A stretch of 64,000 nt of DNA from Taibaiella sp. (lineage in GTDB: Bacteria > Bacteroidota > Bacteroidia > Chitinophagales > Chitinophagaceae), in assembly GCA_021740995.1 (NCBI GenBank), contig JAIOYR010000004.1:14495-78494 (forward strand), given 5' to 3'. A program made the translations under genes and the position numbers. How positions within the stretch are numbered: the first letter of the stretch is position 1; every line of letters begins with the position of its first letter. The notes beneath the pieces were generated by a model. It saw only the letters and a program-made list of their open reading frames with translations. It was not told the DNA's origin and made no database searches. This document shows positions 7,226 through 64,000 of the stretch, in pieces.

Positions 7226-8092
7226 ATGAATAGAAAAGCCCACAAATACATTAAGCTATTTTTTGTATTCAATTTACTTTGCTTTTTGATAAGTTGTAGT
7301 TCATACATCGAAGAGGAAAATCCGTCTTATAAAAATGGAGAAAAATATAAAAAATACAACTACACTTTTGCATTTGGAAGGCACAAAGACAAACTGTTAG
7401 GTTATGACATAGAGCTTTATAAAAATACTGATGCGTGGGGCTTGGCAAAAGCTGTTTTTGAACAAGATACAATAAAAATAAGTGATATCTGCAGGAAGAA
7501 AAGACACCTTTTATTTAATAAAGAGAATAAATGGGGAATGACCCTACTAGCTTGGTCGGTATTTAACAACAGATATTTTTCGGCAAAAATACTTTTGGAA
7601 AACGGAGCTGATCCAAATGCCAAAACAAATACAGGTGACACGCCATTTATTGATGCCGCTTCTAAAGAAACAACAAACTATTTGAAATTATTGTTGAAAC
7701 ACGGAGGCAAAGTCAATCATGTTATAATTATTGACACCATTTGCTGTACACCGTTAAAAATAGCAGCCAGCACTAGTTTTCAAAATTCAAAAATTCTTAT
7801 AGATGCCGGTGCGGATGTGAATTTCTCTTGCGATAGCATAAACACAGCTATTTCTTATGCTGCATTTTCAAATAAAATTGAAACCATAGAGTACTTAATC
7901 GAGAAAAATGCGAATTACAAAAATCCAATTTATAAATTCGACGACAAAGTATTCTATTTACTCGATTTTGTGAAAAACATGGAATTCGAAAACGGCAGCA
8001 GGGAGCAAGAAATAAAAAAGAGAGTACTGAAATTCCTGCGTGAGCATGGGGCTGATAGCAGCAACTATGGGGAGCCAATCTTACCGAAATAA
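7226..8092 (+). CDS. Ankyrin-repeat lipoprotein, candidate cognate immunity protein
   Basis: Lipobox LISC; ankyrin motifs GMTLLAWS..LLENGADPN, GDTPFIDAA, TPLKIAA..LIDAGADVN. Confidence 0.85.
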   Translation: MNRKAHKYIKLFFVFNLLCFLISCSSYIEEENPSYKNGEKYKKYNYTFAFGRHKDKLLGYDIELYKNTDAWGLAKAVFEQDTIKISDICRKKRHLLFNKENKWGMTLLAWSVFNNRYFSAKILLENGADPNAKTNTGDTPFIDAASKETTNYLKLLLKHGGKVNHVIIIDTICCTPLKIAASTSFQNSKILIDAGADVNFSCDSINTAISYAAFSNKIETIEYLIEKNANYKNPIYKFDDKVFYLLDFVKNMEFENGSREQEIKKRVLKFLREHGADSSNYGEPILPK

Positions 8093-18758: not shown

Positions 18759-19238
18759 ATGGGCAACAACAATAAAATAGGTCTGAACAGTAAGAAAGCA
18801 CAGCAACTTGCCAACAAACTAAATGCACTACTCGCAGACTATCAGATATTCTACATGAATGTGCGTGGGCTACATTGGAACATTGGTGGCAATATGTTCT
18901 TCGAGCTACACCTCAAATTTGAAGAGCTGTATACCAACCTGCTGCTGAAGGTAGACGAAGTGGCAGAGCGGGTGCTTACGCTGGGCAACACACCCATCCA
19001 TTCTTTTTCAGACTACATTAAGACAAGTGAACTGAAAGAGGCCAAGGACATACAAAATGGCGAAGAAGGTGTAACTCTTATTGTGGCTACTTTGCAAAAA
19101 CTAATAGTAAAGCAGAGAGAGCTGCTAAAGTTGGCTAACGACGCTGAGGACGAAGGCTCGAGCGCACTGATGAGCGACTATATCCGCGAGCAGGAAAAAC
19201 TCATCTGGATGTACTCTTCTTTCCTGAAGAAGATATAA
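18759..19238 (+). CDS. dps: DNA protection during starvation protein (Dps/ferritin-like)
   Basis: LHWNIGGNMFFELHLKFEELY, VDEVAERVLTLG, EQEKLIWM. Confidence 0.95.
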   Translation: MGNNNKIGLNSKKAQQLANKLNALLADYQIFYMNVRGLHWNIGGNMFFELHLKFEELYTNLLLKVDEVAERVLTLGNTPIHSFSDYIKTSELKEAKDIQNGEEGVTLIVATLQKLIVKQRELLKLANDAEDEGSSALMSDYIREQEKLIWMYSSFLKKI

Positions 19239-62471: not shown

Positions 62472-63497
62472 TTAGCTGTGCAGTTTCAGTTTTGCCAGGC
62501 GTTCACTTTCTTTTATTATTATTCCTTCCAGTGCTTTTTGTTTTCCTTCTTTGTTTCTGTATACAAGGCGGTGCTCCAGCACTGCACGTGCTATGTCACG
62601 CACATCGTCCTCTATTACAAAGGTTCTGCCCTTCACCAGTGCATAAGCTCTCAGGCATTTGAGAAAGGCAATGCCGCTACGGGTAGATGCACCCAGAGAT
62701 ATGTCCTGATGCGCCCTTGTTTGTCGCACTATGTTGCTTACGGCTTTTATTATCTCCTCGTGCACATGCACATTGCCTGCCTGTGCCTGCAGGTTCAGTA
62801 TGTCTTGCATGGTGAGTACCTGCTGCAGGTCTGTAAGATTGCGGGCTATGTTCAGGTATTGGCGGTATATATTCAGCTCTGTTTCCTCGTCTACATAGCC
62901 GAAGTTGATTTTCATAAAGAACCTGTCGAGCTGTGCTGCCGGTAGCGGGTAGGTACCCTCCATCTCTATAGGGTTCTGTGTGGCTATTGTGAAGAACATC
63001 TGCTCCAGCATGAGTGTTGCATCTCCGGCGGTTACCTGATGCTCTGCCATAGCCTCCAGCAATGCGCTCTGCACCTTGGGCGATGCACGGTTTATTTCGT
63101 CTGCCAGCAGCACATTGCAGAAAAGCGGTCCTTTTTTGAACACAAACTCCTTGGTTCTGTCGTCGAATATATGTGAGCCTATCAGATCCATTGGCAGCAG
63201 ATCGGGGGTAAACTGTATACGCTTGAACAATACATGCTCCTCGCCGGCACCACCACTGATGCACTGTGCCAGTGTGCGTGCCAGTACTGTTTTTCCGGTG
63301 CCGGGATTGTCTTCCATAAGAATATGTCCACCCGCCAGCAGGCAGGTAACCACCATTTCTATCTGCCCCCGCTTACCTCGTATAACCTGTTCTACCTGCG
63401 CTACCAGCTTGTTTATGGCTTCAGTTGCGTCTATCTGAGTGGTTCCCGGAGTATATGCTTCGTTCGGTATGGGTGTTTCTGCTGCAGCCTCTGTCAT
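62472..63497 (-). CDS. MoxR-family AAA+ ATPase
   Basis: MEDNPGTGKT, RIQFTPDLLPMD, ADEINRASPKVQSALLEAM, ATQNPIEMEGTY. Confidence 0.95.
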   Translation of the reverse strand: MTEAAAETPIPNEAYTPGTTQIDATEAINKLVAQVEQVIRGKRGQIEMVVTCLLAGGHILMEDNPGTGKTVLARTLAQCISGGAGEEHVLFKRIQFTPDLLPMDLIGSHIFDDRTKEFVFKKGPLFCNVLLADEINRASPKVQSALLEAMAEHQVTAGDATLMLEQMFFTIATQNPIEMEGTYPLPAAQLDRFFMKINFGYVDEETELNIYRQYLNIARNLTDLQQVLTMQDILNLQAQAGNVHVHEEIIKAVSNIVRQTRAHQDISLGASTRSGIAFLKCLRAYALVKGRTFVIEDDVRDIARAVLEHRLVYRNKEGKQKALEGIIIKESERLAKLKLHS

Positions 63498-63747
63498 GTG
63501 TTTTATTCTTTATACAATTTTACAGCATAATACGTTAGTAAAATAATGGCGGCTTGTAATTTTTTGTGAAAACAACCCACATTGCCATTACCACAGATTT
63601 AGTGTGCGTTATAGATGTTGTTTTATTTTAAGTGTCGCTGAGTCTATATTTCCAAATGCAGCTTTTTCTATGCGCATCAATTGTAGTTGCGCTGCACTTC
63701 GGTACTTTATGTCCTTGATGCAATATCCTAACATTACTATGATCATT

Positions 63748-63927
63748 TTCGATTGTAATCGAAGATTATTATTGTTTTCTTCGTATAAAACCGAAAATAA
63801 TTATGGTTTTCTTCGGTTAGAATCGAATATTGTTATGGTATTCTTCGATTATAATCGAATATTATTATAGTTTTCTTCGGTTGTAATCGAATATTATTAT
63901 GTAATTTAGCGGTTCAAACCGAATATA
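63748..63927. repeat. Six tandem 32-bp repeats, each with a 16-bp palindrome (TTCGATTATAATCGAA consensus)
   Basis: Units start at 63748, 63780, 63812, 63844, 63876 and 63908. Confidence 0.92.
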
Positions 63928-64000
63928 ATGATACATAGAGCGTTGCAGGATCTATTGCAAAAGGCGCTGTTTAAGGGAAAAGCAATACTATTGTATGGAC
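63928..64000 (+). CDS. 5' end of a probable AAA_14/DUF4143-type ATP-binding protein, truncated by the window edge
   Basis: MIHRALQDLLQKALFKGKAILLYG, the usual lead-in to the Walker A (G-x-RQ-x-GKT) of this family. Confidence 0.7.
   Translation, partial: MIHRALQDLLQKALFKGKAILLYG

Follow-up and report, generated by a model that had tools for sequence, protein, structure and literature searches.

A phased array of 32-bp palindromic repeats, probably an autoregulatory operator, upstream of a PDC-S01 ATPase-nuclease gene in Taibaiella

Proteins that combine the AAA_14 and DUF4143 domains are found in tens of thousands of copies in bacteria and archaea and have no known mechanism (PMC12988326). 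DUF4143 was placed among the PD-(D/E)XK members in 2012 (PMC3424549), and PDC-S01, in which an ATPase is fused to a PD-(D/E)XK domain, ranks as the fourth most common prokaryotic defence candidate, with validation pending (PMC12988326). The literature that we searched on DUF4143 and PDC-S01 covers the protein only, and we found in it no upstream array, operator or DNA-sequence specificity. We analysed a stretch of 64,000 nucleotides from Taibaiella sp. (contig JAIOYR010000004.1, positions 14,495 to 78,494; G000:C19:14495-78494 in our numbering; hereafter the window), at the end of which an array of palindromic 32-bp repeats runs up to the start codon of a PDC-S01 gene. A preliminary description of this DNA, made from the sequence of the window, had suggested that the arrangement would be an undescribed DNA-ATPase module, and we likewise found no description of such arrays in the published literature. 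Plasmid iterons, such as those of P1 RepA, F RepE, RK2 TrfA and R6K pi, are phased direct repeats beside an initiator gene, with autorepression and handcuffing among their properties.

We think it probable, from comparison of sequences, that the Taibaiella array is the private operator of the gene that follows it, and that dimers of the gene's own product bind there cooperatively and repress their own promoter. The array spans window positions 63748-63923 and consists of five full 32-bp units and a sixth dyad. In each full unit (units 1-5) a 16-bp dyad comes first and an AT-rich half of 16 bp second; the sixth consists of the dyad alone. The features are as follows, with the scores of a 32-nt weight matrix for the full units.

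63748..63779, plus strand: unit 1, dyad TTCGATTGTAATCGAA (63748-63763) and AT-rich linker GATTATTATTGTTTTC; 26.4 bits.
63780..63811, plus strand: unit 2, degenerate dyad TTCGTATAAAACCGAA and linker AATAATTATGGTTTTC; 24.6 bits.
63812..63843, plus strand: unit 3, dyad TTCGGTTAGAATCGAA and linker TATTGTTATGGTATTC; 26.1 bits.
63844..63875, plus strand: unit 4, perfect palindrome TTCGATTATAATCGAA and linker TATTATTATAGTTTTC; 29.2 bits.
63876..63907, plus strand: unit 5, the promoter-proximal full unit, dyad TTCGGTTGTAATCGAA and linker TATTATTATGTAATTT; 32.5 bits; starts at -52 from the ATG.
63902..63909, plus strand: -7-like box TAATTTAG, running from the end of unit 5 into the terminal dyad by 2 nt.
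63908..63923, plus strand: terminal sixth dyad AGCGGTTCAAACCGAA, without a linker, lying where transcription is expected to start, with the -7-like box before it and the ATG after it.
63928..64000, plus strand: start of the AAA_14/DUF4143 (PDC-S01) gene, which leaves the window; its end is equivalent to position 65055.

Six units at an exact 32-bp period had been claimed for this locus, and both the unit starts (63748, 63780, 63812, 63844, 63876 and 63908, with no indels) and Tandem Repeats Finder agree with that claim. The latter gives period 32, 4.8 copies, 80% matches, 0% indels and a score of 182, with start-to-start spacings of 32, 32, 32 and 32. From the 80% matches, the lack of indels and the constant spacing it follows that the units have diverged by about 20% without loss of phase. 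All six dyads read as first described, including the perfect fourth palindrome, and the gap of 4 bp from the last dyad to the gene stands as well: the terminal dyad ends at 63923, 4 nt ahead of the ATG at 63928-63930, which opens MIHRALQDLLQKALFKGKAILLYG.

The gene was followed in the genome past the end of the window (G000:C19:78422-79549), and its open reading frame (ORF) encodes 375 aa. Its assignment as an AAA_14/DUF4143 ATPase in the preliminary description is borne out by the downstream sequence, in which both Pfam domains lie above threshold (AAA_14, E 2.4e-27, 95.9 bits against a cut-off of 27; DUF4143, E 7.6e-43, 146.5 bits against a cut-off of 28.1). The PADLOC model for PDC-S01, PDLC04789, scores 533 bits (E 6.6e-161) and aligns residues 1-373 with profile positions 1-373 of 375. 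When 61 orthologues were aligned, the putative Walker A residues G24, G29, K30 and T32 and the putative Walker B residue E81 were invariant, as were D267, D324, E337 and K339. An AlphaFold2 model built from the orthologue alignment (predicted local distance difference test score, pLDDT, 90; predicted template modelling score, pTM, 0.90) has the order AAA+ core, lid, winged helix-turn-helix (wHTH) and an alpha/beta nuclease-type domain. The predicted wHTH comprises helices 196-208, 216-223 and 227-239 and wing strands 243-248 and 261-265, and the wing carries the nearly invariant residues R251, N252, R254, N255, K258, K259 and K261. All these invariant residues fall on the expected strands of the model, D267, D324, E337 and K339 would fit a PD-(D/E)XK site, and the nuclease appears to be intact; the winged-helix and PD-(D/E)XK-like regions attributed to such proteins in the preliminary description are both recognisable in the predicted structure. 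Among solved structures, the nearest folds are those of winged-helix AAA+ proteins, namely SSO1545 (2fna; template modelling (TM) score 0.52), RuvB and Orc1/Cdc6 (2qby). A sequence search of the PDB found nothing past the generic AAA+ core and no sequence match to Orc1/Cdc6.

The upstream regions of homologues had been pointed to as the place where further phased palindrome arrays should be sought, and they are present there. We assembled 80 orthologue loci from one-per-species genomes of several Bacteroidota classes (Chitinophagales, Sphingobacteriales, Cytophagales, Flavobacteriales and Bacteroidales), at 55-80% identity, and a second set of 71 usable metagenome orthologue loci. Among same-genus orthologues, and in a paralogue group that is 42% identical, arrays of differing sequence could be seen by eye. 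Over the 192 nt that precede the start codon, lag 32 was the top autocorrelation lag in 54/76 loci (mean match 0.45 against about 0.30), and it was never the top lag in controls taken from inside the gene or from 400 bp further upstream. Iterative refinement gave a 32-nt matrix, with consensus TGCGATTnnAATCGAAAATTATTATRTTTTTT, that found 179 upstream units and none in the controls. At least one unit is present in 77/80 genome loci, with two or more in 59, and in 63/71 metagenome loci. Spacings are exactly 32 bp in 97/104 cases in the genome set and in 50/54 in the metagenome set; with both sets pooled, 147/158 are exact. All units lie within 300 bp ahead of the start codon, where their density is 6.5 per kb; a scan of about 255 kb of gene and downstream sequence gave zero units. 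A locus has up to 8 units, and as at least five occur in only 3/80 loci, the Taibaiella locus with its five full units and terminal dyad lies at the high end. In the matrix, the A-tract after the dyad (positions 15-18) and the T-tract before it (31-32/1-2) are roughly mirror-symmetric.

Bacteroidota promoters, as known from Bacteroides and Flavobacterium, have the consensus TTTG near -33 and TAnnTTTG near -7. An exact TAnnTTTG is found in 34/76 of the promoter-proximal (last) units and in 5/100 inner units, and a relaxed -7 pattern in 62/76 and 20/100, respectively. The commonest geometry, shared by Taibaiella, has the last full unit starting at -52 (30/77 unit-bearing loci). In this class the box lies at about -26, TAATTTAG is its commonest 8-mer, and the space up to the ATG is taken by a further dyad; the class consensus has a dyad where the terminal sixth dyad stands in Taibaiella. 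A second recurrent geometry is that of the Flavobacteriales, whose last unit starts at -36 or -37, with about 5 nt from the box to the ATG. We therefore regard TAATTTAG as a putative -7 promoter box, and a TTG at 63881-63883, in the left half of the unit 5 dyad and 18 nt before that box, could be the -33 element. With a -7 box in the last unit, transcription would most likely start after the array, with the terminal dyad over the start site.

This geometry also bears on the idea that the repeats act as RNA. A transcript from a promoter upstream of the array would carry the palindromes as hairpins in a long 5' leader, where they would control translation or stability. Each dyad could indeed fold into a 6-bp stem with a 4-nt loop, and on the coding strand G·T outnumbers A·C about threefold at pairs 3-14 and 5-12; with all pairs taken together, however, the bias disappears (82 G·T against 75 A·C), and the invariant central TT/AA is not something that a stem requires. 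Moreover, the -7 box lies within the last unit, not upstream of the array, and the Flavobacteriales, where the ATG comes about 5 nt after the last unit, show the same difficulty. An Rfam search returned no family match and only sub-threshold miRNA hits on AT-rich palindromes. Since, in addition, the dyads covary with a DNA-reading helix, as set out below, we consider an RNA function very improbable.

The central TT/AA of the dyad is nearly invariant, and the outer positions vary between orthologues. When 277 variable protein columns were compared with the dyad positions, the strongest covariation of dyad position 14 was with residue 228 (z 26), followed by residue 227 (z 16), and positions 12 and 13 covaried most strongly with residue 226 (z 17 and 14). 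Residues 226-228 form the N-terminal end of the predicted recognition helix. In a second run on consensus units, E228 was paired with positions 3 and 14 and D226 with positions 4/13 and 5/12; at positions 12 and 14, D226 and E228 ranked second. That mirror positions of the dyad map to the same residues is the pattern predicted for a symmetric dimer. The correspondence can be written as a rule in which residues 226-228 go with the two half-sites as follows.

D-x-K: GGATT / AATCC (23/23).
D-K-E, the Taibaiella protein: CG(G/A)TT / AA(T/C)CG.
D-K-G: nGATT / AATCG.
D-K-Q: AGATT / AATCT.
N-K-Q: TGTT / AACGG.
D-K-(T/I/N): mostly TGATT / AATCA.

The rule fits 7/7 hold-out loci that have a covered residue class. 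Among metagenome hold-outs, with proteins less than 90% identical to any training sequence, it predicts dyad position 14 in 50/51 cases, and guessing the commonest base does well under that. With residues 226-228 as the top columns, the array sequence thus covaries with the wHTH, a relation for which the preliminary description had proposed a test. Two units share a specificity class in 73% of pairs inside a locus and in 30% between loci, and the terminal dyad agrees in class with the last full unit at 22/39 loci. With the helix columns left out of the tree, at least 16 changes are counted for residue 228 and at least 10 for position 14. We also looked at whether the wing or nuclease domain contacts the linker (positions 23-30 against N255, K261, C268 and Q319); a single Algoriphagus clade supplied most of this signal, to which a small basal group added for K261, and it was rejected as shared ancestry.

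A neutral slippage minisatellite, which the preliminary description had named as the alternative, is hardly credible in the light of these data, and neither are binding sites of some unrelated regulator of the host. Slippage can yield tandem AT-rich repeats, and unit number does vary among close relatives, which at about 80% identity hold 3-4 units where Taibaiella has 5 full ones. Units that are only about 80% alike have nevertheless kept phase without an indel, and the unit, its phase and its position are the same across taxonomic classes and on a spirochaete plasmid. Homologues carry phased arrays too, and their dyads track the recognition helix of the adjacent protein. There is no conserved neighbouring regulator.

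We suggest that the autoregulatory operator would work as follows. A single 375-aa chain would join an AAA+ ATPase, a lid, a wHTH and a PD-(D/E)XK nuclease, and two copies of it would occupy each 16-bp dyad, which in the Taibaiella genome is CG(G/A)TTnnAA(T/C)CG. D226-K227-E228, at the N-terminus of the recognition helix, would read the outer bases of each half-site, and basic residues of the wing may contact the conserved A/T tracts that flank each dyad. As 32 bp is about three helical turns, bound dimers would lie on one face of the DNA and be able to touch, and such contact could lead to a cooperative, possibly ATP-controlled, assembly. Occupancy of the last unit and the terminal dyad should then shut the gene's own promoter, a negative autoregulation, because the -7-like box lies in the last full unit and a further dyad over the expected start. 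Physical binding, the number of copies per dyad, their cooperation, the sign of the regulation, the transcription start and whatever the ATPase and nuclease contribute are inferred.

Several observations weigh against this operator model or limit it. The box TAATTTAG is one mismatch away from TAnnTTTG. The left half-site is more degenerate than the right in the matrix, so binding may not be strictly symmetric. The residue-to-base rule has exceptions in L072 and L176 (DKG with AATCA) and in L065 and L081 (DKN with AATCG), and the hold-outs come from clades already represented in the training classes. For each residue class only 1-3 independent contrasts are well supported, too few for a sign test, and part of the covariation could therefore reflect shared ancestry. 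A 12-bp asymmetric linker core, TTATTATRTTTT, is strongly conserved and left unexplained by a dyad model, and for simple repression alone an ATPase and an intact nuclease would both be superfluous.

Because repression accounts for neither the linker core nor the ATPase and intact nuclease, a second reading deserves consideration, in which the array is mainly an assembly or holding platform. The ATPase-nuclease would polymerise on it in 32-bp register, and this would store, license or time the nuclease, for example for release or activation on phage infection, with autoregulation secondary. The family is a candidate defence family (PDC-S01; PMC12988326), its ATPase and nuclease residues are invariant, and its architecture is like that of DNA-loading AAA+ proteins of the Orc1/Cdc6 and RuvB type. 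The whole 32-bp unit, linker included, is conserved across classes beyond the need of a simple operator, and one locus has up to 8 units. On the other hand, many orthologues have just one or two units and other subfamilies a single palindrome, and the position of the array is tied to the promoter. PDC-S01 is also without an experimental defence phenotype in the literature (PMC12988326), and the Taibaiella locus, with MoxR and housekeeping neighbours, lies in no obvious defence island. On balance we judge the platform unlikely, with a probability that is still appreciable. A bolder idea, which we advance as speculation and would rate as rather unlikely, is that PDC-S01/DUF4143 proteins are sequence-programmable AAA+ nucleases, in which two or three residues at the beginning of one helix set the specificity, here 226-228, reading dyad positions 3-5 and 12-14. 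The array would then be a nucleation strip for an ATP-driven filament or ring at 32-bp register, at once a self-repressing switch and the place where a defence or conflict nuclease is held or licensed. If this were true, the array would serve as a 'home base' encoded in cis, something for which we know of no description in any defence system.

Private operators of this sort may not be limited to one gene. All three DUF4143 genes of the Taibaiella genome carry their own, different upstream repeats. A paralogue on contig C53 (44% identical, gene start 19037) has a 32-bp array of TAAATTGCGTCAG...TGACC units at G000:C53 ~18840-19036, and units of this type also lie upstream of its orthologues in other genomes (L019, L025 and L029). 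The paralogue on contig C64 (419 aa, minus strand, domain at 7268-7753) has (T/G)AAATTTAAAG / TTTAAATTTGCAA motifs in three clusters, at intervals of about 21-22 bp, a repeat architecture that differs from the 32-bp type. In a broad sample of 27 other Bacteroidota DUF4143 genes, a significant tandem period was seen in 1/27, and a strong palindrome within 90 nt of the ATG (ending 0-43 nt before it) in 16/27, against 0/54 controls (p = 4.5e-9). With one long palindrome as the usual pattern and tandem periods so rare, the phased 32-bp array is specific to this subfamily, and a putative private dyad operator at the promoter seems to be general in the family. Two Bacteroidota genomes, G053 and G064, have 14 DUF4143 genes each, some of them adjacent (e.g. 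G064:C41:24857-26699), and offer a natural test bed for cross-talk between private operators.

The surroundings of the gene were examined for signs of mobility or replication. The divergent upstream neighbour is a MoxR-type AAA_3 ATPase (window 62472-63497, minus strand), and the downstream neighbour, beyond the window, is a 1530-aa repeat-rich secreted-type protein (L002 3661-8253, minus strand). MoxR and its upstream gene, which is like tetratricopeptide repeat (TPR) genes, are syntenic in six same-genus genomes, and since synteny stops at the MoxR start, the DUF4143 gene sits at a synteny breakpoint. An empty-site comparison with the six same-genus genomes found none of the genes downstream of MoxR nearby, and no clean insertion boundaries could be drawn.

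The array could also be read as a replication origin of the iteron type or as a mobile-element end that the ATPase-nuclease recognises, and there is something to be said for this. Tandem directional repeats adjoin the gene for an AAA+ winged-helix protein of Orc1/Cdc6-like architecture, the DUF4143 gene lies at differing genomic positions among species of one genus, and homologues are also found on plasmids. We nonetheless believe the chances of either to be slight in the extreme: no second or inverted array follows the gene or occurs anywhere in the 2.5-kb flanks, no replication or mobilisation genes are nearby, the neighbours being chromosomal housekeeping genes, there are up to 14 copies per genome, and the array is fixed to the promoter and start codon. 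The preliminary description had proposed an autoregulatory or iteron-like platform. Its autoregulatory half fits better than the iteron half, given the promoter-like -7 box in the last unit, the dyad between that box and the ATG, the lack of a replication context and the presence of up to 14 such genes in one genome.

Three further copies of the gene were also seen with such units. The Treponema saccharophilum plasmid pTS1 (L149, 333325-334473) carries a homologue, 45% identical, with two Bacteroidota-type 32-bp units (32.7 and 23.9 bits) and a new helix motif, D-S-L. This spirochaete megaplasmid suggests that gene and array have moved together across phyla. A copy on a faecal scaffold, 53% identical, has units of the same 32-bp kind. 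One contig labelled Beijerinckiaceae (L079, CAJCIQ010000069.1) has a 69%-identical orthologue with Bacteroidota-type upstream units; the contig is assigned to an alphaproteobacterial bin, and mis-binning or a recent transfer is the likely cause.

Within the Taibaiella genome the repeat is confined to this locus. In a search of the 3.9-Mb genome TTCGNTTNNAANCGAA was found at the array only, and the weight matrix scored the five full units at 24.6-32.5 bits and nothing elsewhere above 18.3 bits. The best match outside the array, TTAAGCTAAAATCGCAAATAATTATGTAAATC (G000:C32:18176-18207, minus strand, 18.3 bits), is isolated and has no DUF4143-like ORF after it. As the unit is confined to one locus, a dispersed intergenic repeat, similar to a repetitive extragenic palindrome (REP) or a miniature inverted-repeat transposable element (MITE), was rejected. 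An array of clustered regularly interspaced short palindromic repeats (CRISPR) was rejected as well, given that the 16-nt 'spacers' are themselves conserved inside the array and across orthologues. Avoidance of the dyad as a restriction-like site was rejected too: the dyad core CGRTTNNAAYCG has 9 copies in the genome, 5 of them in the array, and the 4 others are within the range (1-56) of 60 permuted control patterns. An exact search of metagenomes for copy-number variants of the array in the same species gave no match. An 88-aa ORF with a GTG start (window 63604-63870, plus strand) crosses the array; its translation only mirrors the repeats, and it is almost certainly not a gene.

We believe that the Taibaiella locus, with about 150 relatives, is a cheap entry to this family, as it offers six phased candidate sites and a predicted reading head at residues 226-228. 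The specificity rule is simple enough to be tested with one residue and two bases, and the promoter geometry predicts autorepression. If ATP-dependent assembly on the array were true, an AAA+ motor, a nuclease and a private DNA address would be joined in a single gene, and this would bear on the question of how a host keeps single-gene defence candidates silent and safe. The residue-to-base rule could also yield a set of orthogonal DNA-binding modules.

How, then, does the locus compare with the systems it most resembles? The Taibaiella protein is a full-length member of PDC-S01 (AAA_14 + DUF4143; COG1373), with both Pfam domains. Its array shares with the operators of autoregulated winged-helix/HTH repressors dyad sites that would lie over the putative -7 box and expected start, the whole-turn phasing, and bases that track residues of the recognition helix. 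It differs from them in that the predicted binder has an AAA+ ATPase and an apparently intact nuclease, and in that the 32-bp unit is conserved whole, with a directional AT-rich linker and up to 8 units. With iterons it has in common phased direct repeats adjoining the gene of the presumed binder, presumed autorepression and a handcuffing-like cooperativity; in contrast to them, the locus is chromosomal, with several such genes in the genome, and has no Rep fold, origin context or nearby plasmid functions, and its unit holds a palindrome where an iteron is asymmetric. Archaeal Orc1/Cdc6 proteins and their origin recognition boxes show the same order of AAA+, lid and winged helix and have dyad-containing boxes beside their own gene, and Foldseek matches 2qby_B at E 1.1e-6, with a low whole-chain TM of 0.31. 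The likeness is one of architecture only. Unlike Orc1/Cdc6, the Taibaiella protein has an extra C-terminal nuclease domain, genes of its kind occur in many copies per genome, and its boxes are at the putative promoter, abutting the start codon, not around an unwinding element. Autoregulation by promoter-overlapping dyads is in itself an ordinary design; what is unusual here is that the presumed binder is an AAA+ ATPase-nuclease, that the 32-bp unit is strictly phased and wholly conserved, and that a residue-to-base rule predicts its sequence.

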